64,000 nt of DNA, from positions 1,436-65,435 of the forward strand of contig JBBSJE010000003.1 of NCBI GenBank assembly GCA_038257535.1. The letters run 5' to 3'. A program made the translations under genes and the position numbers. Shown one piece after another: positions 3,281 to 50,371 of the stretch. Below the pieces are notes generated by a model. It was not told the origin of the DNA. It searched no databases and saw only the letters and a list, made by a program, of their open reading frames with translations. The DNA comes from Polyangia bacterium. GTDB taxonomy: Bacteria > Myxococcota_A > Polyangia > Fen-1088. Numbering within the stretch: the first letter of the stretch is position 1; every line of letters starts with the position of its first letter.

Positions 3281-3293
3281 GGCGACTGACTCC

Positions 3294-5381: not shown

Positions 5382-5640
5382 GGGCGCGTGGTCCTTCGGG
5401 AAAATCAGGAGGCGGCAGGCATTGCTGCAAAAGGCAGGCCCGCCTTGGCGCCTCAGTGTCACGCAGCAGGGGGGCGCCAAGTACCTTGAATCACAGGCAT
5501 CAAGCGACGTGGGCGACAGCTCCAGGGTGCAACCTGTGGCGTAACATGTTGCACCTGCTGCGGGGGGCGCAAGCAGCTGCGCTGGTCGAACGTGGCACCG
5601 TCTTCGCGCCGCAGCGGCGGCACGTCCTAATGGGCCCGGT

Positions 5641-32405: not shown

Positions 32406-35150
32406 TTAAGGCACAACCGCCCGAAACGTCCACGCATCTGCGATTGCGGACCGCGCGTGCAGATCGAGCTGGGCCTTTCGCAACACAGCCGCAGGGTGCT
32501 TGTGAGGATCGGCAAACCCGCCTTCGTAGAGGGCTTCGGACAAAGCGCGGGCCGTTGCATCGGGCACTTGGCGCACCGCCGCGATCACCACACCCGCGCC
32601 CGCCGTGACAAAGGCGTGTGCCAAGGATAACCCCCCAGCGGTTTCATCAAGCCGGGCGCCCTCGCACGACGACAACACCACTTTGCGCGGGGCCTGCTTT
32701 AACGACAAGATGTCGCCCACCAGCAAGCGCGTGTCTTGACCCAAGAACAGTGCGCTTTGCCAGCCATCTGTGCCTGAAAACGTGCCGTGCCCTGCATAGT
32801 GAAGCAGAACGGATTTTGCCAAGGTATCGATCACCCGCTCGTGTGTGGCGTCACTTCCCGCCAAGGCCACAATCACATGGTTCGTTGAAGACAAAAGCGA
32901 CGTCACGCTTGCGGCCTCCTTGCGCGCGCCTTGCAGATCCAACTTGGGATCCGAAATCACCAGCGCCGAGGCACGCCCGGTGAGCACGCCCTGGGGCACA
33001 CAACCTTCAACGCCGTGACACACATCGAGTTGGTATTGAATGGCCGCATGCTGAGCCAGAGGTTTGCTTTTCCAGGGAAGCGAAGCAAAGTCGATCGGCC
33101 ACATGGCCGGCGGCAACACCAAACTGATGAGCTTGGCATTGGTGAGCTCGCGCTCGAACGGCGTAAGCAAGGCGGAGGACATTCGCGCGGCGTTGCTCTC
33201 GGCTGGCACATCATCAACACGTGCAAAGCGCGCGCCTTTGGGTGTCACCACAAACCCCAACAGGCCGTCGTTGGCCTGAAAATAACCCAGGACGATCTCA
33301 TCCTCGCCGGGTTTTCTTAAGGTGGCGCGCGTGACGGACGCTCCTGGTCGCAACGCGCGGTAAACCTCATCAAGCGCTTGATCAATGTCTGCCGGAACGC
33401 TGGCTGTGTCGGGCGTGGCGTTGGACGAGGGTTCCACCAGCTTGTCCACCGGCCTATCCCAATTTGCCTGCTGCAACTCGAACTGGCTGCGTAGCTGGTG
33501 ATAGTGGGCCAGCGCGGTTTCCCATTGCTGCCGGGCGGGGGCAGACAAACGTGCCACCTGCGGCGCTTGGGAGGCCAGCAACAAGGCTCGTGAACGCGCC
33601 ACGCGAACGGCATCAGCCGCGGCTGCCTGTTGCCCCATTTGCAAGAGGGTTTGCACAAGCTCCTGAACGCTTTGGCGATGATCACGGGTGAAAGCCGCCA
33701 CCCCCTGCCCCAAGGGAACCTGCCGCGCCAACCCATCAAGCGCGGCTTCCGCTTGCTGAAGGGCGGCGACGGCCAAACCACGTCGCTTACCCATCTTTAA
33801 GGCCATGCCCTGGCCCACCAAGGCCCGAAAACTTTCTTGAGCCAGTCCCAGATGTTGCGCCAAATGGTTTTCGTTTTCGAAAAACCTGAGGGCGATTTGC
33901 CATTGCCCGCGCAACAGCGCCAATCGGCCTTGGGCGTCGTGTTGCCATACCTGCAGCAAGGGGCTTTGCCCACCTTGCACCATGAGCAGCGCCTTCTGCG
34001 CGGCCATGCCGGCTTCCAAAGCACCTTGCTCCACGGCCAGCAGAAGTTGTTCGATCAGCAGGTTCCGCTGGCGAAAGGGATCCGGGCAGTTCGCCAGATC
34101 CTCCTGCGCGTGTTGCATCAAGCGCAGGGGCTCCTCAGTATGGGCAAGCCCACCTGCCAGCGCACCTTGGCCGCGCACCAGCGCCAGCAGGCTCAAAGCC
34201 AGATTGAGGCGATCATCAGAGGCGTCACACGGCGTCTCCCACGGCCCCTGCACCAAGGCCCGCTGCAAGGCCACGGCTTCATCGCTGCGGCCAATCAGCC
34301 GCAAGGCCACCGCCACATGGCGCTGGGCTGTGCGCGCCAAGGCATCACGACCCAGCTTTTGAGCGCTGTGTGCGCTGTCGCGAAACGCCGCCAGGGCTTC
34401 ACCTATGTTGCCCACCTGACTGGCGATGCCCCCTTCGTTGTACCGCAACGCCAAACGGTGTTCGGGCACAGTTTGTGTAAGCGGCAGGGCTGCCTCTATC
34501 ACGGCACGGGCGCCGGCATAGTCTTGGCGGTAATTTAAAAGGGCATACGACAAGGCCACTGCATCTTTGAGCGCCTGAGACAAAAGCCCTTCTCGCTGCG
34601 CCGCCGCCATCGAAACGCGCAACGCTTTGATGGCTCCGGGCACGTCTTGCGTTTGCAGCTTAAGCCTGGCAATGGCCGCCAGCAAACGGGGTTTCTCGAT
34701 GCCTTGTGCGTGCAGAGCCGCTTCTTGTAGGCCCACCAAGGCGCCTGAAACGTCACCTCCCTTTTGCCGACGCGCGGCCTCTTCAAGCGCAGGCAAGGGG
34801 GCATACGTGCCCAGCGCCAAACGATATTGCGAAGTGTGCGACCCATCGCCCAGCACCAGCTCCACCCACGACGCCAAGGCGGGCGCTTCAAGCCGCAACG
34901 TATAGCCTTCGTGTTGAATCTGTGCCTGGGCAAGCGGCAGCGCGCCTTGCGAGCCGCGAAGGGCCGTAAGCTGCCCGAAGCGCTGCGGCCACCACAAAAC
35001 AAGGCTGCGGTTGGATGCCGACAGCAAACACACGGGCCCCGTCACAACCGCATCACAGCCGGCGTACTGCACAGCGTGTGCGGGCAAGACGTTTGGCTTT
35101 GCAGTGGTTTTGGTGCACGAAATGCACAAACCGGCCGCAAGGCCCAACAT
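32406..35150 (-). CDS. TPR-repeat CHAT-domain (caspase-fold) protease lipoprotein
   Basis: ORF 32406..35243 trimmed to ATG 35150 (MLGLAAGLCISC lipobox). A long TPR-like helical repeat region follows. The C-terminal CHAT domain has the dyad LHYAGHG ... VVLSSCEG, with the Cys codon at about 32664-32666. Confidence 0.85.
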   Translation of the reverse strand: MLGLAAGLCISCTKTTAKPNVLPAHAVQYAGCDAVVTGPVCLLSASNRSLVLWWPQRFGQLTALRGSQGALPLAQAQIQHEGYTLRLEAPALASWVELVLGDGSHTSQYRLALGTYAPLPALEEAARRQKGGDVSGALVGLQEAALHAQGIEKPRLLAAIARLKLQTQDVPGAIKALRVSMAAAQREGLLSQALKDAVALSYALLNYRQDYAGARAVIEAALPLTQTVPEHRLALRYNEGGIASQVGNIGEALAAFRDSAHSAQKLGRDALARTAQRHVAVALRLIGRSDEAVALQRALVQGPWETPCDASDDRLNLALSLLALVRGQGALAGGLAHTEEPLRLMQHAQEDLANCPDPFRQRNLLIEQLLLAVEQGALEAGMAAQKALLMVQGGQSPLLQVWQHDAQGRLALLRGQWQIALRFFENENHLAQHLGLAQESFRALVGQGMALKMGKRRGLAVAALQQAEAALDGLARQVPLGQGVAAFTRDHRQSVQELVQTLLQMGQQAAAADAVRVARSRALLLASQAPQVARLSAPARQQWETALAHYHQLRSQFELQQANWDRPVDKLVEPSSNATPDTASVPADIDQALDEVYRALRPGASVTRATLRKPGEDEIVLGYFQANDGLLGFVVTPKGARFARVDDVPAESNAARMSSALLTPFERELTNAKLISLVLPPAMWPIDFASLPWKSKPLAQHAAIQYQLDVCHGVEGCVPQGVLTGRASALVISDPKLDLQGARKEAASVTSLLSSTNHVIVALAGSDATHERVIDTLAKSVLLHYAGHGTFSGTDGWQSALFLGQDTRLLVGDILSLKQAPRKVVLSSCEGARLDETAGGLSLAHAFVTAGAGVVIAAVRQVPDATARALSEALYEGGFADPHKHPAAVLRKAQLDLHARSAIADAWTFRAVVP

Positions 35151-35185
35151 AAGGCGCGTGACAATGGGGGCGCGAAGTGGGCGAA

Positions 35186-36022
35186 TCAAGGCGTTGTTGA
35201 AGCGTCGCTGACCACGAACACGGGAACCACGAGCTTGCGCCACGTGGGATCCATTTCGTCGCGGTTGAGGGCTTTTGAAGAGGGTTTCTCGCTGTGGGCC
35301 GAATGGATCACGAACACCAACACCCCATGCCCCGCACGGTTTGGCAGCAGCGACGACACGTTGGCCACCAACCGCATCGCGCCCGTTTGCCCCTTTTCAA
35401 AATTCACGGTCAACGGCACCCAAGGGCCGTCGGATGGAAAGCGCGCATACCCGGCAACGGCCACCGGATACGCCACCGTGGTTTGCGGCCGCAGAAGGAT
35501 TTCAAGCGGCGCGTCGGGCGTCAAACGCAGTGGCTCGGTAGACGGCGCGGCGCCACGAACGCGCGCTTCACCACCTTGCACCACCACAGAATAAGGAGGC
35601 AAAGCTTCACCCGGGGGCGCGTTTTGCCCCACCACCACGAAGATCGCCACAACCGCGGCCACCGCCAAAGCAGGCGCCCAGATCGTTAAGACACGGGCCG
35701 AACGGCGCGCGCGCGCACGCGCCAAATCGTGTTGCCCAGCGGAAGCGGAGGACAGCGCGGCCACGACGGCATCGGCCAACGCTTGATCTTGGGCGGCCGG
35801 AGGCGGGGCAAAAAGTTTTAAGGCCTCGGCCAGCTCGGGATCTTGCTGCGCGCGTCGTTGCAGGTCTTGTAGCTCGTTGGCCGACAAAGTGCCTTCCACC
35901 AACCTTTGCAAGCCCGCGTCGCACAAACGGGCATCGTCTTGCAGCAGCGCCAACTCTTCCGCACGCGCCGCGTGCAAGACAGACTGCAAGGTGGCATCGC
36001 TAGATGTGTTCTTAACCGTCAT
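35186..36022 (-). CDS. Anti-sigma factor (single TM, periplasmic C-domain)
   Basis: It has a 4-nt ATGA overlap with the upstream ECF sigma gene. The TM segment is VLTIWAPALAVAAVVAIFVVV. There is a helical cytoplasmic N-domain and no zinc-finger motif. Confidence 0.7.
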   Translation of the reverse strand: MTVKNTSSDATLQSVLHAARAEELALLQDDARLCDAGLQRLVEGTLSANELQDLQRRAQQDPELAEALKLFAPPPAAQDQALADAVVAALSSASAGQHDLARARARRSARVLTIWAPALAVAAVVAIFVVVGQNAPPGEALPPYSVVVQGGEARVRGAAPSTEPLRLTPDAPLEILLRPQTTVAYPVAVAGYARFPSDGPWVPLTVNFEKGQTGAMRLVANVSSLLPNRAGHGVLVFVIHSAHSEKPSSKALNRDEMDPTWRKLVVPVFVVSDASTTP

Positions 36023-36681
36023 GGCGCCACCGCCTTGGATCCGGGATCAGCCTGCACGGCCAAGCCGGCGGGCGTGACATCGTCTCGCAGCTCGTGTGCC
36101 AGGTTTTGCACAAGCTTCAGCAAACGGTTGCGCCAGATATAAACCGCGTTGGCGCTTAAACCCATGGCAACACAGATCTGTTCAACGGGCTCTTGATGGC
36201 AAAGCAACCTGTAGAACAGCTCAAGGCCCAACGGCGAAAGCCGCGCCTGCACCTGCGCCAAGATGATCTCAAGCTCTTGGCGCGAAGCCAGCACGGCGTC
36301 AACCGCCGGGGCCCCCGCGGCGCCGTCCTCAATCTCACTGAGATCGTCGCTTAAGCGTTCAACACCCGGCCGGGTGCGCAAAATCGAAATCGCACGCCGC
36401 TGCGCCACAAGCCCCACAAAGGTGCGCAACGAAGCGCCCTTGCTGGCGTCCCACGTTCGCAGCAAGCGGCCCTCATTTTGAAAAAGCTGCAGCAGAATTT
36501 CCTGCGTCAAATCCTGAACCTCTTGAGCGTGATCAACAATTCCCCCCGCCCGCAAACGCAGCAGCACCAGCCCTGCGCGGTATCTCACCACCGGCGTTAG
36601 CAGCGCGACCAAACGACGCACCGCCACCGGATCGCCCGCAAGGGCGGAGGTCACAACGTGCTGTTCCTCCTGTTCATGCAT
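36019..36681 (-). CDS. ECF-type RNA polymerase sigma-70 family factor
   Basis: Region 2 (VQDLTQEILLQLFQ...LRTFVGLVAQRRAISILR) and region 4 HTH (VEQICVAMGLSANAVYIWRNRLLKLV). Confidence 0.85.
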   Translation of the reverse strand: MHEQEEQHVVTSALAGDPVAVRRLVALLTPVVRYRAGLVLLRLRAGGIVDHAQEVQDLTQEILLQLFQNEGRLLRTWDASKGASLRTFVGLVAQRRAISILRTRPGVERLSDDLSEIEDGAAGAPAVDAVLASRQELEIILAQVQARLSPLGLELFYRLLCHQEPVEQICVAMGLSANAVYIWRNRLLKLVQNLAHELRDDVTPAGLAVQADPGSKAVAP

Positions 36682-36756
36682 CCAGGGCGCATCATTGCAT
36701 TGCAGGCCCCAGATGCAACTTCAACAAATCCGCCTTCCTTTTTGGCCTTCCCCTTG

Positions 36757-37167
36757 TTACCCCCCCTTGCCCGGTGATGGCGTTCGCGGATTCGCAAGCT
36801 GGCACTGGTAAAGCGCGTCTTGTTCGGGCCGACAAAGCTCCTGCTTGATCGCCACCATCGACAAAAAGCAAAACCAGGGCTCTGGGTGCTGCATGAGGCA
36901 GAGATCCAGAGCCGTGCCTGGCCCCCCGCATACCCCTTCATTGGCGGGAACACACATTTGCAGGCACTCCTGCAGCGTGTCGGTGGCGCACGCAACCTGA
37001 AGTTTTGCCGTGCATTTGTCATGACACAACGCCGCGATGTTCATGCCGGCATCGGCGCCCGCATCCATCTGCGGCGCAGTGGCGACACCGTCGCAAGCCG
37101 CCCCCATCGTCACCATACCCACAAGGGCAAGTCGGAGGGGCAACGGCAAAGGCAACATGGGGCACAA
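36757..37167 (-). CDS. Small exported Cys-rich protein (CX3C...C...CX3C framework)
   Basis: 136 aa with an N-terminal hydrophobic signal ending ..MGAAC, and 12 Cys in the mature part including CHDKC and CLQMC. It lies 13 nt downstream of the 954-aa-ORF S8 gene. Confidence 0.6.
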   Translation of the reverse strand: MCPMLPLPLPLRLALVGMVTMGAACDGVATAPQMDAGADAGMNIAALCHDKCTAKLQVACATDTLQECLQMCVPANEGVCGGPGTALDLCLMQHPEPWFCFLSMVAIKQELCRPEQDALYQCQLANPRTPSPGKGG

Positions 37168-37180
37168 ACCCTCCTGACGA

Positions 37181-39988
37181 CTAGCGATTGATCACAGCAA
37201 TCACTTCGGTGTGCGTGAGTAAACCGCTGCCGTTCCAAGTCACCACCCAGTTGGTAAGACTGCTCACATACAAGTTGTCGACCCCCGACAAATAAACCAA
37301 GAAGCGGGAATTGTTTGTGGGCACGGGCGTGTAACCGGGGGCGTTGTAAAAAACCAATCGCGTGTCAACAGGCTGAAATGGACGCTGCAAATGCACCTGG
37401 GTTGCGTAGATTTGCGTGTCTTGGGGTGCATCGTAGGCACCCGCAAAGTAGCCAAAGCGAAAGCCGAGGTTGTAGATGTCAAGCGTGCAGTAGCCCGGTA
37501 AGCAGCCAAAAGGTGAAGGTGCAGGCCGAATCCACGGCGCCAGGTGCAGGCCCCAAACCGGAGCGCCGCCGGGCGGAATCGGCGACACATCGCTTTCGTC
37601 CATGCCCGCGGCCAAACCATCGGGCATGGTGGGAACATCGGGCTCGGCCACCCTCGGAGGGCATTGCCAGGGCGCGCGCCCCAAAGCCACGCCGGCCGCG
37701 GACACCGCCTGACAAAACTGCACGCTGCGGGTGCGGCGGCACGTGTGATCAACGCAGCCGGGACGCGCAAAGTCGGCGTTGGAGAAATCAAGCAGATCCA
37801 CCGCCCCCGTATAAAGCAGCGTTGTAAATCCCGTATCGTAAAGCCACTGCATCACCTGAAATGAATCCACGTTGCGGTTCACGGCCCACGCCGCTGCAGC
37901 CACGCCGCTGACGGTGGCCGCCGCCATCGAGCTGCCGCTTAAGGTCATCGTATGCGAAGGGCCGCCGCTACGTGATTCAGACGTGACCACGCCCATGCCC
38001 GCGCCCGCCAACCGGGCTTTGCCCTCGGCGCGGGAGTTGCCCAAGATCAAGTGTCCTTGGCCCGCGCCCATCGCCGCAAACACAAGCGGGCGGTAGGCGG
38101 CTGAGCTAGGCGAAGGGTTGGCAGCGCCGCGCGTCCATCCGGGGGGCAAAAACGAAGCGCAGCGGGCGGGATCTTCCACCGCAGGAAGCGCCTCCCAGCC
38201 GGCCGGCAAAAACGGCCCTCGATCATAACCGGGGTTGTCCTCGTTGCCCGCGGCCGCCACCACCAAAGCACCCAGGCAAGACGCCCGTTCCAGAGCCACT
38301 TGCACCACCTCTTCAAGCAGCGCCGGCTCATCACGCGGGCAATCGCCGGGATCGGTGCGCAGATCGCGGAAGTCGTTGAGATAAGGCACATGGCGTTTGT
38401 CCCAACCCAAGCTGAGGTTCATCACCAGAGGCTCGGCGCCGCCATCGGCCACCCAATCATTTAAAGCGGCGTGAATCTGCGTGGCCAAGCCTTGAAAGTC
38501 GGCGTAGTAGCCGCCCCGCTCGCGATCAGGGGGCGCCTCCAAATGCACGCGATCCAGCGTAAGATAGTTGCGAATTTGTTGTGCACACTGCGCGCTGCCA
38601 GGATCCACACACGCCAGATCCGCAATCGTTCGGCCCACGGCGCGGCCATGGCCATAAAGTTCACGGCGGTCGTCATCGTAAGGAAACACAGCCGAATCCA
38701 ACACGGCCACGCGCACCGGGTTGGGCTTTTGCGAAGCCAAGCCGGGCACCCAGCCCGTGCGCTGGCGATGCAGGTCACGCAGGCTTTGCCACACATCTGC
38801 GGGAAGCGCCTCGGCACCTGTGGGCGACAGCGCCGGTTGATCACAGGCAAAACTTGGGCTTCCCAGATCCTTCAACAGTTCATAGTTGGGACTTTGAGCC
38901 GATTGCCAGCGGTAGCCGCAATGAACCTGGGTTGCCTTTGATTTTGGCGCCGTGAACGTGGTGAGGGTTTCGCCCTTCCATTCACCCAACGAAGGGCACG
39001 CCACATCGCCCTTGAAGGGGCCTTGACGCTTCACCAGCACGCTGGGCGAGTTTTTCACATAAGGTGGCATGACGTCGAAGCCCACGCCTTGGGGTTCATG
39101 CAAACGGGTGGGAAACGCAGGCGGCTCACACGTGCATTGACCGTGCTGTTCAACTGGATTCGGCATCGCCGCGCCCACCAGCTTGCCTTGGCAGACCGGG
39201 GGGCCTTGGCAGTCGCTCACGTGCAGGGGAAACGTTAGTTTGGCAGCGGGGCCCTTGCCGTCGCTGGCCTCAACGGTGATGTGATACGTGCCCGGCGCTT
39301 GCGCGGCGAAAACAGCCAGCTTGGGGTCTGAAGCCAAACAAAACGACGGCATTTTTGCGCCTTCGGGGTTAACCGAATATTTCAAGGTGACGGTATCGCC
39401 ATCGGGATCGGACGCGCCCACAACAATCTGCGCCGCCTCGTGGGAACACACAAACTTGCCGCCGCCAATCTGCAAGGAATTGATGCTGGGTTGCGTGTTC
39501 AGGGCCACGGCCACATCAAGGCCGGCGTTCCCCGGCGCAAGACACGTGAGCGCCAACGAAATTTCTGTGGTTGCGGTGGGCACAACAGTGACGCGTTGTT
39601 TGCCCTCTGCACAATTCGGCAGCGGCGCGCCGGCTGCGTCAATCACAACGGCAGTTACATCGTAAGAACCCGCGCGCAGAACAAACAGCGCGTCGGCAAA
39701 CGGCCGCGCAGCCAAGTTTGAGTCTACGGCAGGGGGCAAGCCGTGGTTCTCGAACGGCACCACTTGCGTGTGCTCGCCCGAAGCGCCCACCACCTTCACC
39801 CGCACCGCTTTCGCTCCCGCGGGGATCTGCAATGACATTTGCAACCGCACGGTTCCACGCGAGCCATCCTCAGGCAGCGGCGTCCCTTGCGGTGGCTCAG
39901 CCGATTGACAAGCCAGCACCAAAGCCGCAGCAACCAGCCATTTGGCGGCGAACGTGGCAAACGCTTTTGCAGAATCTAAGCACATCAT
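37181..39988 (-). CDS. Large S8 (subtilisin-like) serine peptidase lipoprotein
   Basis: ORF 37181..40045 trimmed to ATG 39988 (lipobox LVLAC). The triad is VAVLDSA (Asp), YGHGRAVG (His), AAAGNE (oxyanion Asn) and SGSSMAAATVSG (Ser). It has N-terminal Ig-like modules and a ~300-aa C-terminal extension. Confidence 0.85.
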   Translation of the reverse strand: MMCLDSAKAFATFAAKWLVAAALVLACQSAEPPQGTPLPEDGSRGTVRLQMSLQIPAGAKAVRVKVVGASGEHTQVVPFENHGLPPAVDSNLAARPFADALFVLRAGSYDVTAVVIDAAGAPLPNCAEGKQRVTVVPTATTEISLALTCLAPGNAGLDVAVALNTQPSINSLQIGGGKFVCSHEAAQIVVGASDPDGDTVTLKYSVNPEGAKMPSFCLASDPKLAVFAAQAPGTYHITVEASDGKGPAAKLTFPLHVSDCQGPPVCQGKLVGAAMPNPVEQHGQCTCEPPAFPTRLHEPQGVGFDVMPPYVKNSPSVLVKRQGPFKGDVACPSLGEWKGETLTTFTAPKSKATQVHCGYRWQSAQSPNYELLKDLGSPSFACDQPALSPTGAEALPADVWQSLRDLHRQRTGWVPGLASQKPNPVRVAVLDSAVFPYDDDRRELYGHGRAVGRTIADLACVDPGSAQCAQQIRNYLTLDRVHLEAPPDRERGGYYADFQGLATQIHAALNDWVADGGAEPLVMNLSLGWDKRHVPYLNDFRDLRTDPGDCPRDEPALLEEVVQVALERASCLGALVVAAAGNEDNPGYDRGPFLPAGWEALPAVEDPARCASFLPPGWTRGAANPSPSSAAYRPLVFAAMGAGQGHLILGNSRAEGKARLAGAGMGVVTSESRSGGPSHTMTLSGSSMAAATVSGVAAAAWAVNRNVDSFQVMQWLYDTGFTTLLYTGAVDLLDFSNADFARPGCVDHTCRRTRSVQFCQAVSAAGVALGRAPWQCPPRVAEPDVPTMPDGLAAGMDESDVSPIPPGGAPVWGLHLAPWIRPAPSPFGCLPGYCTLDIYNLGFRFGYFAGAYDAPQDTQIYATQVHLQRPFQPVDTRLVFYNAPGYTPVPTNNSRFLVYLSGVDNLYVSSLTNWVVTWNGSGLLTHTEVIAVINR

Positions 39989-40219
39989 CGAACAACTCAC
40001 CTTTCCTTGCTGGCACCGGCTCATCTCGGGGCAGGGCGCAGGCAATCAACCTTATTTGGCGCGAGCCTAGTACACGAAGCCGTTGAGGGGAACCATTGTC
40101 GCGGGCCGCAGCCGTAGCTGGGCAAGATGTTTGCGTTTTTGTCACCGGCGATGGGCGCCACGGCAGCTCCGTGGCGCCCCCCAGGACAGGGCCGCTGGCC
40201 CCAAGCGGTTACGAGTGGG

Positions 40220-43200: not shown

Positions 43201-44248
43201 ACGTGCCCGTGCCGGTGCGGCTCAACGTTACCGGCTCCACGTCTTTTGTGCCGGGCACCGACAGCACCACGTCCATGGTTTCGGCGCCGGTGTCATATGA
43301 ACCCATGTTGAGGCTCACCGAAGCGGACGCTGCTTCCGCATAAAACACCCGATCAAGTTTGATCTCCACACCGGTAAGCGTCTTGGCCGGCGTGGTGGTG
43401 TTGGTGTTCCCGCACGAACATTCGCCAGCGCTGGCAGCGGGCGGTTGCTTCAACGCGGTTTGCGCGGCCTCCCCTAAACATTGAGGGGCGTCACCACAAT
43501 CTGAAATATAAACCGGGAAGGTCAAAGCGGTGCCGTGCGCGCCTTCGCCCACCTGCACGCGCAGCTCATATTTTCCCGGCACCGACGCCGTGAAGGCCAC
43601 CCGCGAGCCAGCCCACGTCAGGCAATGGTTGAAATCCGTTGCCCCTTGCGGCACCTGCACCACAGACCAATTCCAAGCATGGGCCACATCGGGATCTTGC
43701 AACGCAATCGTGCCGGCAAAAGCCTCGTTGGAGCACACAAACTTGCTGCCATCCAGATCGATGCCTGCGATGACAGGGCCTTTGGCGAACACCAAGGTGG
43801 CGTCAAGCGCCCCGTTCGCCTCAGCACCACAACGTGCAACCAGCAGCACTTCCGTTGTGGAGGCGGGCATCACGTGGGCCTGCGTTTTCGCCAACGAGCA
43901 GGCTTCTGAGGCTTGGCCGTTGGGGCCCAGCGGGGTGGCTTCAACGTCGTAAACGCCCTGCGGCAGCACCACCAACCAATCGGCAAAGCGAGAGCCGGCG
44001 TGCGCGGTGTCCCTCGCGGCCGGCAGGGGTTCGGCTTCAAGAGGAATCACCGCCGACGTCACCTGGCCGGCCGCGTTGGTGGCCGAAAACGCCACGCCCG
44101 ACACCTCAAACTCGGGCGAAATGCTGGTAAGCGCCAGCTTCATACTGCCCACCGCGTCAGGAGGCTGTTTGGGCCCCGAAGGGCCGGTGTTGCACGCAAA
44201 CATCAGAAAAAGCGGGGCCCAGGCCGCCGCACGCAAAGTTGGTTTCAT
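40220..44248 (-). CDS. Giant S8 (subtilisin-like) serine peptidase lipoprotein with an insertion in the catalytic domain
   Basis: ORF 40220..44266 trimmed to ATG 44248 (MKPTLRAAAWAPLFLMFAC lipobox). The triad is VAVLDMG (Asp), SWHGTGV (His), VSSGN (Asn) and GGTSAAAPYVTG (Ser). The N-terminal modules are homologous to those of the 37181-39988 protein. Confidence 0.88.
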   Translation of the reverse strand: MKPTLRAAAWAPLFLMFACNTGPSGPKQPPDAVGSMKLALTSISPEFEVSGVAFSATNAAGQVTSAVIPLEAEPLPAARDTAHAGSRFADWLVVLPQGVYDVEATPLGPNGQASEACSLAKTQAHVMPASTTEVLLVARCGAEANGALDATLVFAKGPVIAGIDLDGSKFVCSNEAFAGTIALQDPDVAHAWNWSVVQVPQGATDFNHCLTWAGSRVAFTASVPGKYELRVQVGEGAHGTALTFPVYISDCGDAPQCLGEAAQTALKQPPAASAGECSCGNTNTTTPAKTLTGVEIKLDRVFYAEAASASVSLNMGSYDTGAETMDVVLSVPGTKDVEPVTLSRTGTGTYQGETGFTLHAEGEPTPADGKLVVGAGQALFAMYFPDKTQPQLANLGVDHFSDVAFLDNPNAVAPAVEPRLALTDDETANQAKPAGTLLRSGGMPVQIASEEVMVWVRNDAELQAFVAMSGGEVVAKQELDPSDNNAPSYAQVALVKVSPKAESGRRLATLDAFLGESQPLLVSNAQVASLVAQVITWRLDGWAVAVNPRLQYQAAPTISTTENDAVTHTMKLTPGCRPGDATRPCFENVPALWSWTALWDKDTSRVNVAVLDMGFAPNADFRAPASGPMRECDMTSSAGPVCGPGRAQGSPTVGNSFFGDRSWHGTGVVTTMGGVVNNGFGAAGVAGQVAVPMLYKYDAMAYVFEVGAGMRRATNDGASCINISGGYPCRIMMNFGPDFDICSGAGRLGICGVVTAAAASAAAAVCAATGWIPFVGAIACGAATGAVVAATSACLSTLAFGNLAGPMDVGARFAHSRGVPVVVSSGNALSRESLPEVIRDLVDLSNRNSDDWRVMPAVLPHTISVGAVDENLNNVHFFGNTVDVWAPIRSAYFAPNDVNNPGSPLVANTIGGTSAAAPYVTGLIAVMQAANTELNPNTPGLTDAQKRTIVERIRTLIRSNSFTNAQLVAGGFSNQPAVRPRLVNPLATVMAAAGSSVPNLAALGYDTSLGFSEQDAPNDTPAQALPLVAGVERTGTIVTLRGEGPFAPVPDVDFYAFNMPAGARPMEADITLSYPDSFGSLLLQGEGLRVVSRGSGNVVYRVVANAGARVVFSVQGSIENDNVYKLRMITRPAVPTVRILQPLDADEHEVCSDADVTLRARAEFTGSPLVVAGGAYQWSNGSMTLGNGNPLVRRFAPGVHDVTVQVYGDPASLDVIRLTARPCTANVPTGNIIRPTGDSGRDNPDYVYDGFDDASGMWFKDVQLEAFATDVEDGVLAGAAIEWRTNQTGVQAELLGTGTRLTVRLFSNSCFGTEHVITAVAIDSNGNRTALGSRRLLIWTLC

Positions 44249-44438
44249 GTCCATTCTCCCGTTCATGTGAAAAAAACGCCGTCGGAATGGCTTTCACGGG
44301 AAGGGAGCGAAATCTTTCAAGCGCGGGCAAAAGAAGTTTCAAAAAGGCGCAACACTTGCGGTTTCACGGCGGCGACAAGTTACAAGCCAGCTTCGCATAT
44401 TGACCTTCCTGGCGTTTGCACGCAGGCTTCGGCCAACC

Positions 44439-45080
44439 ATGGCAAAGTCAGGTCTTTCGAGAGGTCTTCACCCGCTTATCGTTGTATTGGTCTTGGCCGG
44501 CGTCAGCTCGGTTGTTGGGGTGGTCGCCTGCTCGGGCGATGACGACGACGCAAAGGCGCTGTGCGTGCAAGGCTGCGACAAACTGGTTTCCTGCAACCCT
44601 CAGCTTCAAGGGTTCGTGGGCTCGTGCAAGACCCGATGTGAACAGCCCGCCGAGGGCGCTTCAAACCAGCGGTGCGCCAACGAAGCGGCCATTGTGTCGA
44701 AGTATAAGGAATGCTTGTCAACGGCGTGCCCGCAGTTTGAGGGCTGCCTTGGGGCCATTCCCGCGTGCCAGGGTAACAGCACCTCGGGTACGGGCGGCAC
44801 AACAGGAGCGGGTGGCACACAGGGAATGGGCGGCACAACAGGCACCGGGGGTGTACCGGGCACCGGCGGCATGAGCGGCTCTACAGACTGCAGCGTGTGC
44901 ACGAAGGCGGATGCTTGCTGTACGGCGTTTGCGGCGCTGTCCAACGCGGGCACCGGGGCCTGCACTTTGGAACAAGCTTGTGCAACTTCCGGCGGAAACG
45001 CATCGACCGTCGTTGAAACCTGCACCTTGTTGATAACAAACATAGCTCAGGCCGCGCCCGATTTGGCGGCGTGTAAATAA
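44439..45080 (+). CDS. Cys-rich lipoprotein (CX3C...C...CX3C framework, Gly/Thr-rich linker, second Cys-rich half)
   Basis: ORF 44400..45080 trimmed to ATG 44439; the lipobox is VVACSG. It has CVQGC ... CKTRC, the linker GTGGTTGAGGTQGMGGTTGTGGVPGTGG, and then 9 further Cys. Confidence 0.7.
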   Translation: MAKSGLSRGLHPLIVVLVLAGVSSVVGVVACSGDDDDAKALCVQGCDKLVSCNPQLQGFVGSCKTRCEQPAEGASNQRCANEAAIVSKYKECLSTACPQFEGCLGAIPACQGNSTSGTGGTTGAGGTQGMGGTTGTGGVPGTGGMSGSTDCSVCTKADACCTAFAALSNAGTGACTLEQACATSGGNASTVVETCTLLITNIAQAAPDLAACK

Positions 45081-45100
45081 AGCCGTTCTTTCGAGCGGCT
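45081..45100 (+). terminator. 8-bp hairpin with tetraloop directly after the stop codon
   Basis: agccgttc-tttc-gagcggct (one G-U pair). No T-tract follows, so function is uncertain. Confidence 0.3.
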
Positions 45101-45487
45101 GGTGCATGGGCCAGCCTTGTAGCAGACCCATGCGTTGCCGCTGCAGATCCCTTAGCCGCGTGGTTGCGGACGTGACACGGCGTTAACCGTGCTGCCCGTT
45201 GTGGTTCCTCAAAACCCCATCCACCACGGAATGATTGAATTTTTCGGCAAGGCCGTCAAGCTCCTCCGGCTCGATGCTGCACCTACTTCTTGCACTGCTC
45301 GCCACAGCAAGGTCGAGCCTCAAGCCGCAACGGGACCTCGCCCTGAGAACCTAGCGCCTCGCCAGCAGTTCCGCGCGCACGCATTTGTCGTTGGCCAAGG
45401 ATGCCCCTGTGCCCCGGCCCGTCGTGACCAATAGCCATGGTCACATGGTTGGCTTGCCTGAGCGGCATCTCTCGACTCAAGCCAAAC

Positions 45488-47227
45488 TCAAAGCGGCAGT
45501 CGAGCGTTGATTCCCCAGCACCACAACCTCTGGTCGATTCCGATGGCGCAGTTGCTTCTCCCCGTGCCCAATGCTGTGAAGCTGCCCTCAGGTACCACCG
45601 CGCGGCTGTGAAAATCTCCGGAGCAAGTGATGGTGCCGTCCGTGCGCAAGCCACACATCAGGCGCTCGCCGAGGTTGATTTGCTTGAACGTCCCCATGTC
45701 TGGAAAGTGGCGAGGCTCCATCCCGCCGCCCCAACAAACGATGGTTTTGTCCGTTCTCAGGCCACACGTACGGAAGCGATCTGCAGTGAGCTGAACGAAG
45801 TTCTCATTGGGTGCGTCTGCCTGGCCCTCGGCGTTGTTGCCCCAACAAGCAGCGGAGCCATCGAGCCGAAGACCGCAGCTGTGGAAGTCGCCGGCCACCA
45901 CCTTCACGAAAGGTTCATCGGGCGGCATAGATTGGCCAAATTCGTCGCTGCCCCAGCAGGTGGCGCGTCCGTCTGCCCTCACGGCGCAGCTATGCTGATC
46001 GCCCGTCGCCACATCCACGAAAGTCCCCTCAGGCGCAGCGGTTTTGCCGTCACGCTCATTGCCCCAACATTTGACCGTCTGTTGGCTTGTGATCCCGCAC
46101 GCGTGTGAAGCCGCGGCGCTGACCATAAGGAAGCGATCGCGAAAGAAACCAGCGCCCCAACATAGAAGCGTCTGGTCTGGCTTTAGGCCACAGGAGTAAC
46201 CCGCACCGCCACTGACCTGCGTGAAGAGATCGTTGGGCGCGGTACTTTGCCCGTAGGGATCGCTTCCTTGGCAAACGATGTCGCCATCGCTTTTGAGCCC
46301 GCAAAGGTGCCCCGGATATAAACCTCCCATGTCTATCTGCGTGAACTTTCCTTCAAGTCCTACAGGCCCAACGCACGCTACGCTGCCGTCATTCCTGATT
46401 CCACAACTGAGGTGGCGTCTACCCGCGCTGATTCGGGTGAGGGGGCCGAGCGAGGCGAGTTGGTTCTTTTCTTCACCCGAGATCTCTCCCCAACAAGTGG
46501 CGTTCCCCTCGGCGTTCAAAGCGCAACTGTGTGCATCACCTACAGCCAGCTGAGTGAACTTTCCGCTGGGTGGTTGCTCGTAAGTGGGAGATCCCCAGCA
46601 GGCAATTGTGCCATCGACCCTGAGACCGCAGTTATGCACCCCGCCGGAGCTCACGCCGATGAAAGATCCCGCAGGCGGCGGCACGACCGGGGCCCGATAA
46701 GCGATCTGATGACCCCAACAGGCGAGCAACCCATCCTGCTTTACGCCGCAGGCGTGCCTCATTCCGGCGCTTATCTGTTTGAAGAAGCCATCCGGCCCCG
46801 GCGCGGGCCAATTCTCCTTGTGGCCCCAACACTCGACGGACCCATCCATCCGCAATCCACAGGTGAACGAAGACCCGGCGGTGACTTGCGCGAACTTGCC
46901 CGCAGGGGGAGAACTTTGACCTTGGTCATTTCTTCCCCAGCAGGCGACGGTCCCATCGCGCCGCAGGGCGCAGGTGTGAGAGCCGCCCGTGGCCACCCCG
47001 CGCTCCAGAGGAAGCAGAGGCGGCGGCGCGTCGGGCTGCACTGCAAGCTCCGAAGTGTCGGACTCTGCGGCATCAGAGGCTTTGATCAGGGCCGCATCAA
47101 CATGCTCTGCCCATCTAGTGTCCGGATCGCCCCCATCGTTAAGCTCCGGCTCGCTCGCGGGTGGGCTGCCGCCGCACGCACCTAAAACGACACACGATGC
47201 AACCGCCCACACAAACTTTGCCTTCAT
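45488..47227 (-). CDS. RCC1-like short-repeat (beta-propeller) lipoprotein
   Basis: ORF 45488..47296; the lipoprotein start MKAKFVWAVASCVVLGAC at 47227 is preferred. The alternative start at 47296 would make an ATGA overlap with the caspase gene. There are about 14 tandem ~37-aa units of the form xCG(L/V)RxDGxxxCWGxxxxGQ..P.G.F.Q(V/I).(A/G)G. Confidence 0.85.
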   Translation of the reverse strand: MKAKFVWAVASCVVLGACGGSPPASEPELNDGGDPDTRWAEHVDAALIKASDAAESDTSELAVQPDAPPPLLPLERGVATGGSHTCALRRDGTVACWGRNDQGQSSPPAGKFAQVTAGSSFTCGLRMDGSVECWGHKENWPAPGPDGFFKQISAGMRHACGVKQDGLLACWGHQIAYRAPVVPPPAGSFIGVSSGGVHNCGLRVDGTIACWGSPTYEQPPSGKFTQLAVGDAHSCALNAEGNATCWGEISGEEKNQLASLGPLTRISAGRRHLSCGIRNDGSVACVGPVGLEGKFTQIDMGGLYPGHLCGLKSDGDIVCQGSDPYGQSTAPNDLFTQVSGGAGYSCGLKPDQTLLCWGAGFFRDRFLMVSAAASHACGITSQQTVKCWGNERDGKTAAPEGTFVDVATGDQHSCAVRADGRATCWGSDEFGQSMPPDEPFVKVVAGDFHSCGLRLDGSAACWGNNAEGQADAPNENFVQLTADRFRTCGLRTDKTIVCWGGGMEPRHFPDMGTFKQINLGERLMCGLRTDGTITCSGDFHSRAVVPEGSFTALGTGRSNCAIGIDQRLWCWGINARLPL

Positions 47228-47292
47228 CCTGTAAAGACGGCTGAGGGTAGAAAATCCGGCCAACCATCGCACCCGAGCCTGACTAGGTGCCG

Positions 47293-49101
47293 TCAAAAGT
47301 CCGCAGAGAATCCAATCAAGTAGGTTTCTTCAACGGAGGCTGTGCGATACACGTAGGCGACGGTGACGTGGCCCTCCAAAGCCCAAGATTCACCCAAATA
47401 AACGCGCACCAAAGGCAAGGGACGCAAGGCGCGCCTTTGCACAGAGCCCACCGCCACCACAAGTCCCCCTTGTGAAAGCAGATCAGCTGCCGGCTGCCAG
47501 ATCCCCCCTTGCACGAACGTCTTCGCCACGCCGCCACCTAAGTTGAAAGTGGCGATGCCACGCAAGTCCCACGAGGCCCCCACTGTTGATAACGCGGTCC
47601 ATGTGTCAAATGGCTTGCGTGGCGCCGCTTGCTCGGCCCACTGCCCAGCGCCGAAAGCCGCCAGGCTGATGTTGAAAGACTCAGTACGTGGCATTTCATG
47701 CCAGCGAAAATCGACGCCGGCGCCAATTAACGAACTAACCATAATACCCTGCGCATCAGTTCGAGAGACACCCACTACCGGCATGCCGAACCAAGGAATC
47801 CATTCTAGGCCGTACTCGTCACCACCTCCGTAGGCCAGTGCCAGAGGCAGCGCCAAGTGCCATCGTGGCGCAAATCCATAGGTGATGCGTAGCAACCCCG
47901 CCGCGCCGTCTGACCCCGTCAAGCGCACTCCAGGATCAATGACCGGCGCATGACGAACGCCCAACGCCAACTGAACGTTCCACGAACCCGGGGCGACAAT
48001 GCTGGTCTCGCCTGCTGTCAAAGACTTATTGGCCAAAACCTGATCACGGCCACGGACGAGTTCGGCTTCTTCAAGACTGGCGTTGCCTTCGCGGCCAAGG
48101 GCCACTTCACGGGACCAAACGGCGCCTTTGCCTTGACGGCGCACCAGATACTTTCCAGCGGGTAGAGCCAGACGCAACCTCTTCTTCCCAGGCTGCGTTT
48201 CAAGCAAAACGATCCCGTTGCGCAGATCAACAAGTTGCAACGGCCCCGTTTCTTGCCGAAGCATCAACAAAGCGCGCGGTCTATCCAAGGCGGAAAGAAC
48301 CAGATCATCACGCCCTTTCACATCCATATGGAAGCTGGGGTTTTGGGGCTCACTTGCCAATCGTGCGGTGTCCCGAACCGTCATTTCGCGCGCATAGGCG
48401 AAAGCCTCGTTGATCGTGATGAGGCCATCGTCGTTGTGATCACCGGCGCCGCGCAGCCCCGCGTTCCAATGATGTGTGAAGAACGAGGCGCCCAATAGCT
48501 CGGACTCGTGGGCGTTCTGGGCCCCCGAACTGGAGGAGATCAAGATGGCGCCCTCGCTCGTCAAAGCGCTGGGTACATCCACGTCAAATGGGGCGGCTTC
48601 ACTCAAACCCTTGCTGCCCGTCCATCCGCCGCCGCGGCAGGCATCGATAATTCCCATCCGCAACAGGGCCCGCTTGTCTTGCATCCGAACCCGCAGGTCG
48701 GACACGGCCAACTTTTGCCCGCTCGGATAAAGCGCTTCGGGATCCGCGTGGCCCGAGTAGTAAAATAGCAGCAAAGCCTGACTCGACTTCACTTTGCCTG
48801 CCTGAGCCAAAGCGTTTTCGAGCGCATCTATCACCTGCGCTGGCTGCGGCTCCTTCAGCAGGCGCACATTCTCCGGAAGAAATCCTCCCGTTTGAACCAA
48901 CACGTCCGCGACCGCCTGGGCGTCCCTGTGCGCGTAGCGCAAGCGTGCCCGGCCAGTCGGTGCGGCATTCGCCCCAACCACGACTGCCAAGCGCAAAACG
49001 GGTGGTTCAGTTTGTGCCTGCGCGCGGCCTGGAGTGGGCAGGGCAATCGCCAAACCCAGCGCCAACCTCCACACCCGCAACGTACGCGACCGCGCTTGCA
49101 T
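47293..49101 (-). CDS. Caspase-family (peptidase C14) protein fused to a C-terminal outer-membrane beta-barrel-like domain
   Basis: The signal peptide ends GRAQA. The C14 dyad is LLFYYSGHADPE (His) and GIIDACRGGGW (Cys). The last ~230 aa have alternating hydrophobic beta-strand patterns, and the protein ends ..TYLIGFSADF with a terminal Phe. Confidence 0.8.
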   Translation of the reverse strand: MQARSRTLRVWRLALGLAIALPTPGRAQAQTEPPVLRLAVVVGANAAPTGRARLRYAHRDAQAVADVLVQTGGFLPENVRLLKEPQPAQVIDALENALAQAGKVKSSQALLLFYYSGHADPEALYPSGQKLAVSDLRVRMQDKRALLRMGIIDACRGGGWTGSKGLSEAAPFDVDVPSALTSEGAILISSSSGAQNAHESELLGASFFTHHWNAGLRGAGDHNDDGLITINEAFAYAREMTVRDTARLASEPQNPSFHMDVKGRDDLVLSALDRPRALLMLRQETGPLQLVDLRNGIVLLETQPGKKRLRLALPAGKYLVRRQGKGAVWSREVALGREGNASLEEAELVRGRDQVLANKSLTAGETSIVAPGSWNVQLALGVRHAPVIDPGVRLTGSDGAAGLLRITYGFAPRWHLALPLALAYGGGDEYGLEWIPWFGMPVVGVSRTDAQGIMVSSLIGAGVDFRWHEMPRTESFNISLAAFGAGQWAEQAAPRKPFDTWTALSTVGASWDLRGIATFNLGGGVAKTFVQGGIWQPAADLLSQGGLVVAVGSVQRRALRPLPLVRVYLGESWALEGHVTVAYVYRTASVEETYLIGFSADF

Positions 49102-49880
49102 CAGTGCAAATCATCCGATCCCCGCACCGCGGGGGCAGACCCTTCCGCAGGCTTTTTCGGCAAAACCAGCTCCGTTAGCCACCAGCGGGGATCCGGCTCT
49201 TTGCCCTTCAACTCATTCACATCTTCACTTCGCACAGCTTCCTTAGACAGCACAAGCAAGATCCGCTCGTCGCCAGGTTGTGAATCTATTTGCCACGCCA
49301 CGGGCAAACTCGTGGGGCCCTTGCCTCCGGCCGGGCCCGTCCATAGTCTCTGCCAAGCGCCGGAAGCATCGCGACCGAATGCCGATATGTGCGTGTGGTT
49401 CATTGCATCGACCTTTAGCCGCAACAGGTCCCCCGGTAGGACCGTTGTCGACCCGTCCCACAAAAACGTGTCGTCGCCGCGCTTGACGTAAGCCCAAACC
49501 ATGGGACTTGCCGCCTTGACCCCTACGTAGGCCTCATGATCCCTAACGGCATCATGAGGCTGCGGTTTCAGCAAGAACAAGGAAATTGCGAGTGCAGGCG
49601 CCATCACCAAAGCGGGCAGCCACAAGGCCCGCAGGCGGCTTCGTAGACCAGACAAAGAATGCCTGCCAGGGTGCGGTGCTTCTCCGCGTCGCGGGGGAAC
49701 CGATGCAGGAAGCTCCCGCACCCAAGCAGGTAAAACTTCGGCGTCAGGGCCCACGCGCGCCACGTGTTGCTGGCAAACGATGCAAAAGCTCACGTGCTCT
49801 TGCACGGTGGGAGAGGCGGGTGCCCCGGTTGCAAGTGAATCCAGGGCAAGGAACGACGGATGTGCCTGGTTATCGTTCAT
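49101..49880 (-). CDS. Anti-sigma factor with zf-HC2 (Hx3Cx2C) motif and one TM
   Basis: EHVSFCIVCQQHV lies near the N-terminus and the TM segment is LWLPALVMAPALAISLFLL. It has an ATGA overlap with the sigma gene (49877-49880) and a TGATG 1-nt overlap with the caspase gene (49099-49103). Confidence 0.75.
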   Translation of the reverse strand: MNDNQAHPSFLALDSLATGAPASPTVQEHVSFCIVCQQHVARVGPDAEVLPAWVRELPASVPPRRGEAPHPGRHSLSGLRSRLRALWLPALVMAPALAISLFLLKPQPHDAVRDHEAYVGVKAASPMVWAYVKRGDDTFLWDGSTTVLPGDLLRLKVDAMNHTHISAFGRDASGAWQRLWTGPAGGKGPTSLPVAWQIDSQPGDERILLVLSKEAVRSEDVNELKGKEPDPRWWLTELVLPKKPAEGSAPAVRGSDDLH

Positions 49881-50371
49881 GCTTCCACTCCCTGCTGTAT
49901 GCGCATGGTGGCCAAACGGTCATCGAGCCGCTTCAGCACACGCCTCACGCTTCGCTCGCTGATGCCCATCACCGCAGCGACTTCTTGTTGGTTTAGACCG
50001 TCCAAACGCGACAACACAGCCACTTCCATCTCGTCGCCTGGTAGGTCTTTCACCAACTTGTGCAGCAAGAGCCGGGCGTGGCTCAGTCCCTCGGGGCTGC
50101 TCGTGTCTGCGTGCATTTCATTAAGAGCTGCCAGTTGTTTGCTTGAGCGAAGCTTGTCGATGGCCAGGTGCGTGGCGGTTCTGTAGATCCAGGCGATGGC
50201 CGCCTCAGGCGCGCGCAGGCTGTCCTGCAACTGCCAGAACCGCAGAAACGTTTCCTGCGCCACATCCTGGGCATCACCCGCGCTGCCAAGAATGCGTTTG
50301 CACTTCTCTCTGATCATGGGGAAGTAATGACGGTAGGTGGCCTCAAGGCCTTGTTTGCCCGGTTGGGTCAT
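49877..50371 (-). CDS. ECF-type RNA polymerase sigma-70 family factor
   Basis: 164 aa with region 2 (AQDVAQETFLRFW...WIYRTATHLAIDKLR) and region 4 HTH (QQEVAAVMGISERSVRRVLKRL). Confidence 0.88.
   Translation of the reverse strand: MTQPGKQGLEATYRHYFPMIREKCKRILGSAGDAQDVAQETFLRFWQLQDSLRAPEAAIAWIYRTATHLAIDKLRSSKQLAALNEMHADTSSPEGLSHARLLLHKLVKDLPGDEMEVAVLSRLDGLNQQEVAAVMGISERSVRRVLKRLDDRLATMRIQQGVEA

Follow-up and report, generated by a model that had tools for sequence, protein, structure and literature searches.

Two adjacent ECF sigma factor modules with exported caspase-fold proteases in a Polyangia bacterium

In a stretch of 64,000 nucleotides from contig JBBSJE010000003.1 of a Polyangia bacterium (hereafter, the window), we analyzed an 18-kb region (32406–50371) that encodes two extracytoplasmic function (ECF) sigma factors, each followed by a putative anti-sigma factor, together with four exported proteases. 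As judged from related loci, this region is two independently conserved ECF modules placed side by side, with module A at 47.3–50.4 kb and module B at 32.4–44.2 kb. Module A is a triad of an ECF sigma factor, a zinc-motif anti-sigma factor, and a C14 protease carrying a predicted outer-membrane barrel. By its recurrence among relatives, the core of module B is a divergent ECF sigma factor, a non-zinc anti-sigma factor, a TPR-CHAT lipoprotein, and an S8 lipoprotein, to which a second giant S8 protein and two Cys-rich exported proteins would be additions made in this lineage. For the function of both, we propose with evenly balanced confidence that they are trans-acting, DdvA-like regulated-proteolysis modules, in which an exported clan-CD protease would serve as the site-1 protease of the neighboring anti-sigma factor.

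All positions are window coordinates, and the genes are numbered here as g1 to g11, starting at 50.4 kb and running towards 32.4 kb. The gene map was drawn from the open reading frame (ORF) listing and translation of the window, while families were assigned from Pfam and NCBIfam with curated cut-offs, which were exceeded by g1, g3, g4, g6, and g7. Ten of the 11 genes are on the minus strand and g5 alone is on the plus strand, with 407 nt separating it from the convergent g4. This reproduces the layout, gene order, and two sigma/anti-sigma pairs of a preliminary description of the region, and its family calls hold in Pfam for the five genes just named; of the others, g9 lies just below the cut-off, g11 matches only Peptidase_C25, and g2 and g10 have no family. 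That description had also counted four proteases of two folds, all exported, which agrees with the motifs and conserved N-terminal signals. In fact, the two clan-CD enzymes (g3 and g11) and the two S8 subtilases (g6 and g7) all have intact catalytic residues, an N-terminal Sec signal can be read from the g3 sequence, and lipobox-like signals (a Cys after a hydrophobic stretch) are found in g4, g5, g6, g7, g8, and g11, with export signals being kept in the homologs. The relative loci used in the comparisons are labeled L001, L002/L003, L004, L005, L007, L010, and L091.

Recurrence and separation of the modules

The sigma/anti-sigma/C14 triad of module A was found in six of six independent contexts, in which the C14 proteins are 41–88% identical and the surroundings differ each time. 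Here, an ECF sigma gene (158–171 aa) and then a gene for a protein of about 240 aa without a Pfam match come before the C14 gene every time, and the gene overlaps within the triads are short (1–4 nt) or absent. That a C14 protease directly follows the first sigma/anti-sigma pair, as had been noted beforehand, is thus a conserved arrangement, with a catalytic dyad that is invariant in 46 sequences.

For module B, a word-indexed protein search gave only five g11 relatives besides the window protein, and a metagenome scan with the g11 family alignment gave 80 loci. ORFs were called in 30 long matches and in L005–L007, and the resulting 33 loci were searched with the window proteins, although many of these contigs are too short to show every component. 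A g7-type S8 gene lies beside the CHAT gene in 24 of the 33 loci, while a g9-type sigma gene is present in 19 and a g10-type membrane protein gene in 17, and so the CHAT protease that had been described as following the second sigma/anti-sigma pair is also part of a recurring linkage. When there are at least 3 kb on both sides (10 loci), these proportions become 9/10 for the sigma factor, 9/10 for the anti-sigma factor, and 8/10 for the S8 protein. As a control, 50 loci that match only through a generic CHAT domain had no g9-type sigma, no g10-type protein, and two S8 genes. Moreover, the components occur in at least five gene orders, namely sigma-anti-CHAT-S8, CHAT-S8-sigma-anti, CHAT-sigma-anti-S8, divergent arrangements, and the S8-first order of the window, and since they stay linked throughout, this points to selection on the linkage rather than to inherited synteny. 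The linkage holds down to about 25–30% CHAT protein identity. While L005, whose g11 counterpart is 57% identical, has the same S8-S8-g8-sigma-membrane protein-CHAT order as the window, a lineage with 31% identity has a membrane protein-CHAT-S8 order preceded by a possible sigma gene. In this latter lineage (L007 5611–7770; JGI contig of P0131), the S8 gene precedes a gene for a conserved protein of about 720 aa without a Pfam family, which may be a further lineage-specific component of module B. A scan of GTDB genomes with the g6 alignment returned two spurious partial matches only, and module B was not found among these species representatives.

The two modules do not travel together. Homologs of g1, g2, g3, and g4 are absent from all 33 CHAT loci, and no module B family gene is found in the scanned module A loci for which there is DNA (L001, L002, L004, and L091). 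Likewise, no S8, CHAT, or RCC1 gene was called around C14 in any of the six contexts, two of which are JGI contigs without DNA. The module A promoter motif (see below) is absent from module B in an exact scan of the window, and in L005, the only close relative that is readable at both ends, a non-homologous gene fragment lies upstream of the g6 counterpart. The preliminary description had combined all 11 genes into a single 18-kb cascade, and this lacks support given the absence of C14-module genes from the 33 CHAT loci and of CHAT-module genes from the C14 loci. On the question of recurrence that it raised, both triads recur, module B together with a g7-type S8 gene, whereas the C14 triad recurs without S8. 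Nonetheless, the nearest module A relative, with a C14 protein of 88% identity, is the MAG GCA_033763315.1; its contig ends inside the C14 gene, and adjacency of the two modules is therefore possible in very close relatives. A profile-profile comparison (hhalign) of the g2 and g10 families indicated no homology (probability of 4%), and a protease-recognition domain shared by both anti-sigma factors was dropped from consideration after this result.

Module A and its promoter

The first gene of module A, g1 (49877–50371, minus strand), encodes an ECF sigma factor of 164 aa with Pfam matches to Sigma70_r2 (55 bits) and r4_2 (34 bits) and an NCBIfam match to TIGR02937 (75 bits). In a sequence search of the Protein Data Bank (PDB), it matches SigW and sigma-E, and its possession of sigma-70 regions 2 and 4 only, within the range of about 160–220 aa, is that of an ECF (group 4) factor. 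The first 4 nt of g2 (49101–49880, minus strand) are shared with the end of g1, and its 259-aa product is a single-pass membrane protein with the zinc motif H-x3-C-x2-C (HVSFCIVC) and a conserved periplasmic domain of about 150 aa. This motif is kept in five of the five orthologs read, including those of L001, L002, L004, and L091, as are the transmembrane helix and periplasmic domain. The H-x3-C-x2-C signature in the N-terminal domain is that of a zinc-binding anti-sigma (ZAS) factor, and it is present in g2 and lacking in g10. From its position, translational coupling, transmembrane helix, and zinc motif, we infer that g2 is the anti-sigma factor of g1. A PDB sequence search with g2 gave no meaningful match, and even at E ≤ 10 Pfam had nothing for g2, g10, g5, g8, or the partner protein in L007. 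Among the orthologs, the L004 anti-sigma gene (9215–10004) has its zinc-motif N-terminus and periplasmic domain in different frames, with the gene caller giving only the C-terminal 162 aa; it is a pseudogene unless the assembly is wrong here. The L091 gene is similarly under-called, though without a frameshift.

The third gene, g3 (47293–49101, minus strand), encodes the Sec-exported C14 protease (Pfam Peptidase_C14, PF00656, 47 bits against a cut-off of 21.4). In the AlphaFold2 (AF2) model, with a predicted local distance difference test (pLDDT) score of 80, it is composed of a caspase domain (residues 36–261), a β-sandwich (268–344), and a C-terminal β-barrel of about 12 strands (374–601) that ends in Phe. 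Foldseek searches matched the caspase part to metacaspase, MALT1, and caspase-7, and the barrel part to OmpT, porins, OmpA, and the NalP translocator, this last match being a weak one at rank 47. The invariant dyad is formed by His118 and Cys155, and the likewise invariant Asp153-x-Cys155 recalls the Asp-x-Cys of metacaspases, which favor basic P1 residues. A type Va autotransporter displays its passenger on the surface and has a 12-strand C-terminal translocator whose pore is occupied by a helical linker. The strand count of the g3 barrel and its NalP match agree with this, while there is no Pfam autotransporter match, and the g3 linker (352–364) is predicted by the model to be disordered and not helical. 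The family is about 600 aa and conserved over the full length, with at least 817 homologs at E ≤ 1e-5 among the candidates scored, and those with names belong to metagenome-assembled genomes (MAGs) of Myxococcales, Polyangia, and ‘Deltaproteobacteria’. An exact-sequence look-up of the g3 protein found no identical record.

Upstream of g1 is what we take from its conservation to be a typical ECF autoregulatory promoter, GGCCGGA-N15-CGTCT (50399–50425, minus strand), leaving 27 nt between the end of its −10 element and the g1 ATG. The exact motif with its fixed 15-nt spacing precedes the sigma gene in four lineages (the window, L001, L002/L003, and L004), and in a fifth (L091) it differs by one base (GTCCGGA-N15-CGTCT). 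Just two zero-mismatch copies exist in the 64-kb window, upstream of g1 and of g4, for a chance expectation from base composition of about 0.02 per window. A relaxed scan with up to two mismatches found 10 copies against 8.9 expected, which is the chance level, and only the two exact matches were used.

The second copy (47235–47261, minus strand) is situated in the 65-nt spacer between g3 and g4, and its −10 element stops 7 nt short of the g4 ATG, from which a near-leaderless g4 transcript is predicted. The product of g4 (45488–47227, minus strand) is a 579-aa lipoprotein with the lipobox VLGAC and nine RCC1 repeats (Pfam RCC1_2, 250 bits). Since an exact motif directly before the gene would be so rare by chance, g4 has probably joined the g1 regulon. 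No RCC1 gene follows the C14 gene in L002, L004, L091, or the two JGI contigs, and the recruitment of g4 to the regulon is probably confined to this lineage.

On the other side of module A, the 565 nt between g1 and a DUF1552 gene (50372–50936) hold no convincing gene; an ORF at 50586–51449 (plus strand) shares sequence with the DUF1552 gene and gives no Pfam match, and of the whole interval only the final 30 or so nt, with the promoter, are conserved among relatives. We also observed that pairs of a PSD/PSCyt (Planctomycete-type) gene and a DUF1552 (HXXSHH) or DUF1501 gene occur at a distance of a few kb from the C14 triad, both in the window (50937–52352 and 1943–5480) and in three other lineages (L001 4268–7328; L002 13693–16598; L004 16908–18410). 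The distances and orientations vary, and the association may reflect common descent or a loose link in function.

Module B and the surrounding DNA

The sigma factor of module B, g9 (36019–36681, minus strand; 220 aa), scores 23.3 bits for Sigma70_r2 against a cut-off of 24. However, a profile of the g9 family aligns over the full length with ShbA, an ECF sigma factor of Streptomyces (PDB entry 9isn_F, identified from PMC12019637; E 2.6e-10), and Pfam finds r2 in eight and r4_2 in four of 15 family members, from which g9 can be regarded as a real, divergent ECF sigma factor. Overlapping it by ATGA is g10 (35186–36022, minus strand), a single-pass membrane protein of 278 aa that belongs to a family of 501 cluster representatives (50% identity level), each about 210–320 aa long, and adjoins the sigma gene in 17 loci. 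Its relatives (the 150 best) are all short, at about 160–320 aa, and so none is fused to a protease. The N-terminal region of the family has no conserved Cys/His motif and no zinc motif. Here, position, coupling, and the transmembrane helix lead us to infer that g10 is a non-zinc anti-sigma factor. In this family, an invariant L-P-x-Y...G-G-[ED]-x3-R-[GAS] motif (residues 141–157) stands directly past the transmembrane helix, with its Tyr and Arg present in 18 of 18 sequences (the window and 17 related loci). Arg156, about 20 residues past the helix, is a candidate cleavage site that resembles the acidic-x-x-x-Arg sites of the separase type.

The gene for the TPR-CHAT lipoprotein, g11 (32406–35189, minus strand), probably starts with the TTG at 35189, which forms a TTGA overlap with the stop codon of g10, and both triads are therefore translationally coupled. 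Its AF2 model (pLDDT 80.6, pTM 0.73) shows a β-sandwich, a TPR solenoid, and a CHAT domain. By itself, g11 only matches Peptidase_C25 in Pfam (PF01364, 26 bits), and the CHAT assignment comes from its homologs (PF12770 and TPR_12) and the structural model. With a TPR solenoid followed by a CHAT domain whose His/Cys dyad is invariant in 23 sequences of the family, g11 has the makeup of a TPR-CHAT protease. The best fold matches in the PDB were to DdvA (8rw5 and 8rot, E 3e-15 and 1e-14), followed by Csx29 and then separase.

The S8 component of the four-part module is g7 (37181–39988, minus strand), a lipoprotein of 935 aa (Pfam S8, 33 bits). In its family, Asp431, His447, Asn582, and Ser687 are invariant in 24 sequences, and lipoboxes are found at the N-termini. 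The larger g6 lipoprotein (40220–44248, minus strand; 1342 aa) matches S8 in Pfam (PF00082, 57 bits) with Asp, His, and Ser motifs read from the sequence, and like g7 it has the Asp-His-Ser triad and oxyanion Asn of a subtilase. The N-terminal 270 or so residues of g6 and g7 are homologous (33% identity, E 7e-31) and form a module that ends in C-x-C, whereas the catalytic domains can barely be aligned. Shorter g7-type proteins elsewhere (520–700 aa) lack this N-terminal module. Homologs of g6 number only three in 5.8 billion proteins, among them the 78%-identical L005 protein and one in L010, a locus without sigma or CHAT genes, and this distribution marks g6 as an apparent lineage-specific accessory of module B. 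Between its His and Asn/Ser motifs, the catalytic domain of g6 contains a 65-residue Ala/Gly/Val/Cys-rich hydrophobic insertion (residues 742–806, 41831–42025), CSGAGRLGICGVVTAAAASAAAAVCAATGWIPFVGAIACGAATGAVVAATSACLSTLAFGNLAGP, that is almost fully conserved in the L005 protein and looks like a membrane-inserting or disulfide-rich loop.

Two small genes complete the region. The Cys-rich exported protein g8 (36757–37158, minus strand; 133 aa) is conserved in L005, though uncalled as a gene there. The Cys-rich lipoprotein g5 (44439–45080, plus strand; 213 aa) is loosely associated with module B and has a homolog in L005 (12088–12357, minus strand; E 1e-27) on the other side of the module. Both are conserved in the closest relative only, and on comparison they are not homologous to each other.

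We then considered whether the ECF factors drive the S8 genes, as had been suggested. The one defined motif, that of module A, precedes g1 and g4 in exact form but none of the S8 genes. When the regions before g6, g7, g8, and g9 in the window and L005 were searched for dyad motifs, none was shared. For the g9-g10-g11 operon, there is a candidate sigma-70-type promoter, TTGCAT-N16-AATGAT (36691–36718, minus strand), which is identified by consensus only and conserved in L005, and CTATAAT is found upstream of the sigma gene in other lineages. A scan for sigma-70 and terminator consensus gave counts at the chance level and was not used. A candidate ECF-like block upstream of g6, TGAAAG-N15-CGTGA (44294–44319, minus strand), is conserved between the window and L005, but the form TGAAAG-N15-sGTGA does not recur at module genes in the 33 loci, and nothing is shared with g7, g8, or g9. 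The suggestion is thus not sustained. Moreover, because the S8 gene is in the same operon as the sigma, anti-sigma, and CHAT genes in most loci, it looks like a component of module B rather than its target.

As for the surroundings, a mobile genomic island was rejected. The G+C content is 0.60–0.63 within the region and around it alike, housekeeping genes make up the flanks (such as those for glutaminyl-tRNA synthetase and DAHP synthase), the only tRNA in the window is at 21.5 kb, no tRNA, integrase, or other mobility gene is found near the region, and an Rfam scan of the region was empty. The term ‘island’ can therefore describe gene content only. Elsewhere in the window, and unrelated to the modules, are a 1406-aa ORF (11710–15930) whose Na+/H+ exchanger domain is confined to the first 420 or so residues and, close to it, an FHA-GAF-adenylate/guanylate cyclase gene (17276–18880).

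Proposed mechanism and competing explanations

In the mechanism that we favor, an envelope or extracellular cue would activate the exported protease or proteases, which would cleave the cognate anti-sigma factor on its periplasmic side (site-1 cleavage), after which an RseP-type intramembrane protease would complete its removal and release the sigma factor. The C14 enzyme of module A would be tethered at the outer membrane by its own barrel, in the way that a FecA-type transducer holds its N-terminal domain there. Module B would be a ‘split’, trans-acting counterpart of DdvA, with its S8 protein being either a second protease of the cascade or the activator of the CHAT protein. An action of the caspase-fold enzymes on the periplasmic part of the anti-sigma factors had been put forward in the preliminary description, and it has gained a parallel in the published DdvA hypothesis and in DdvA being the top fold match of g11, with the cleavage itself being putative.

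DdvA from Myxococcus xanthus is a transmembrane anti-sigma factor with a periplasmic TPR-CHAT part, whose partner sigma factor is DdvS (PMC11506125). It has been proposed that, on a signal, DdvA cuts its own linker as a site-1 protease and RseP then releases DdvS; the RseP-dependent loss of truncated DdvA was demonstrated, whereas self-cleavage is only proposed (PMC11506125). Module B resembles this system in having an ECF sigma factor with a single-pass anti-sigma factor and an extracytoplasmic TPR-CHAT protein with an intact His-Cys dyad, for which DdvA is the best fold match in the whole PDB, and the logic of a site-1 CHAT protease followed by RseP would be transferable. In contrast, the TPR-CHAT part in module B is a separate lipoprotein, with g10 and g11 being separate genes in all 17 loci that have a g10 relative. 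While DdvA has a zinc-bound (CHCC) three-helix cytoplasmic domain, g10 lacks a zinc motif and has its own periplasmic domain of about 140 aa, and g11 has an extra N-terminal β-sandwich. Module B also includes the conserved S8 lipoprotein, shows no similarity to DdvA at the sequence level, and has no CBASS or CRISPR genes nearby.

Other known systems are comparable in part. In Craspase, which consists of Cas7-11 and Csx29, the TPR-CHAT protease Csx29 cleaves Csx30 and frees an ECF sigma factor, as was shown experimentally (PMC10028731), and in the Haliangium SAVED-CHAT/PCaspase system a CHAT-to-caspase cascade reaches a sigma factor (10.1101/2023.06.23.546230). In both, a caspase-fold protease cuts a sigma-sequestering protein or another protease in trans, and Csx29 is the third-best fold match of g11. 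However, these systems are cytoplasmic, triggered by RNA or cyclic oligoadenylate (cOA), and CRISPR-associated, whereas the modules here are extracytoplasmic and without CRISPR context. The actinobacterial ECF54 group is reported to have a subtilase, a carboxypeptidase, and a CHAT protein in its neighborhood and no anti-sigma factor (PMC8999054, PMC7826278), and regulation of the sigma factor by proteolysis has been suggested in a review (PMC8999054). Module B likewise links an ECF sigma factor genetically to a subtilase and a CHAT protein but, when compared by description, differs from this actinobacterial group by its conserved anti-sigma-like membrane protein. Lastly, module A shares with FecI-FecR-FecA the order of sigma factor, anti-sigma factor, and outer-membrane barrel, with an N-terminal soluble domain placed towards the periplasmic anti-sigma part. 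It differs in that neither g3 nor g2 matches TonB_dep_Rec, Plug, STN, or FecR, the barrel has about 12 strands rather than 22, and the N-terminal domain of g3 is by its motifs a catalytically intact caspase-like protease. Module A was therefore not classed as FecIRA-type cell-surface signaling, to which its gene order and topology are analogous only. In the incomplete literature that was searched, we found no description of a sigma/anti-sigma/C14-barrel triad or of a split sigma/anti-sigma/TPR-CHAT/S8 module.

Several points weigh against the proposed mechanism. The cleavage step is putative in both modules, and the anti-sigma roles of g2 and g10 are assigned by position, neither protein being in any Pfam family. 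With the g2 and g10 families unrelated, the two modules need not share a mechanism. The fold match of g11 to DdvA has low global TM-scores (0.24–0.25), and PDB sequence searches with g11 and its family profile gave no meaningful match, and none to DdvA. In the DdvA system itself, dyad mutants were without a phenotype in unstimulated cells and autoproteolysis is undemonstrated (PMC11506125). As for g3, the model is compatible with a C14 domain either in the periplasm or displayed at the surface. Moreover, the apparent promoter of the g9 operon is of the housekeeping type, and the motif searches defined no target promoter for g9.

The strongest competitor, which we consider somewhat unlikely, is that the sigma pairs sense an unrelated envelope signal and the proteases are the output, switched on as degradative enzymes for predation, nutrition, surface remodeling, or envelope quality control. 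Consistent with this, all four proteases appear from their sequences to be exported and catalytically intact, and the C14 gene is inside an autoregulated operon and hence sigma-induced. In addition, g6 is found without sigma or CHAT genes in L010, the weak NalP match of the g3 barrel would permit surface display, and the source lineage is related to MAGs of Myxococcota/Polyangia, which are known for secreted proteases. On the other hand, the tight translational coupling of the triads implies stoichiometric partners and not cargo, while their flanks are freely exchanged. The linkage in module B likewise survives at least five gene orders and the descent to about 25–30% CHAT identity, its operon promoter appears to be of the housekeeping type and not an ECF one, and in structure g11 comes closest to a domain of an anti-sigma factor.

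A different suggestion, improbable in our estimate, is that module B (and perhaps module A) detects a periplasmic phage or competitor protein and switches on a defense regulon elsewhere. The closest structural relative of g11, DdvA, does control a CBASS-CRISPR island (PMC11506125), but no defense genes lie beside the modules in the window, and PADLOC gave only weak, generic caspase and subtilase matches with no membership in a defense system. This suggestion is about biological role and could hold together with the site-1 mechanism. Least probable of all is that the 11 genes act as one cascade, with C14-CHAT cross-talk and both sigma factors driving S8, since against their adjacency and shared orientation in this genome and the ECF-like block upstream of g6 in the window and L005 stand the separate inheritance of the two gene sets, the confinement of the module A motif, and the unrelated fragment upstream of g6 in L005.

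More broadly, and tentatively, the site-1 mechanism may extend to a general, unrecognized mode of ECF control, in which a dedicated caspase-fold protease, exported and encoded by the third gene, is the signal-activated site-1 protease of its own anti-sigma factor; module A would then be a proteolytic analog of cell-surface signaling, and module B a periplasmic two-protease cascade of TPR-CHAT and S8 enzymes that cuts at the invariant Arg past the transmembrane helix. ECF sigma factors are among the most abundant signaling devices of bacteria, and the step that inactivates the anti-sigma factor is obscure for many groups. Protease-gated ECF signaling is itself already known, and the two modules would be new architectures of it. 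Both designs are widespread, and unannotated, in uncultured Myxococcota-like and soil bacteria. They bring with them two putative anti-sigma families, those of g2 and g10, that are covered by no domain database, and a concrete promoter motif, GGCCGGA-N15-CGTCT, for finding one of the regulons. In DdvA, a single protein is both protease and substrate and has no known trigger, for which reason its self-cleavage could not be shown. With the protease and its putative substrate being separate polypeptides in two designs, the DdvA hypothesis becomes directly testable in vitro, and the modules would offer a cleaner handle on it.

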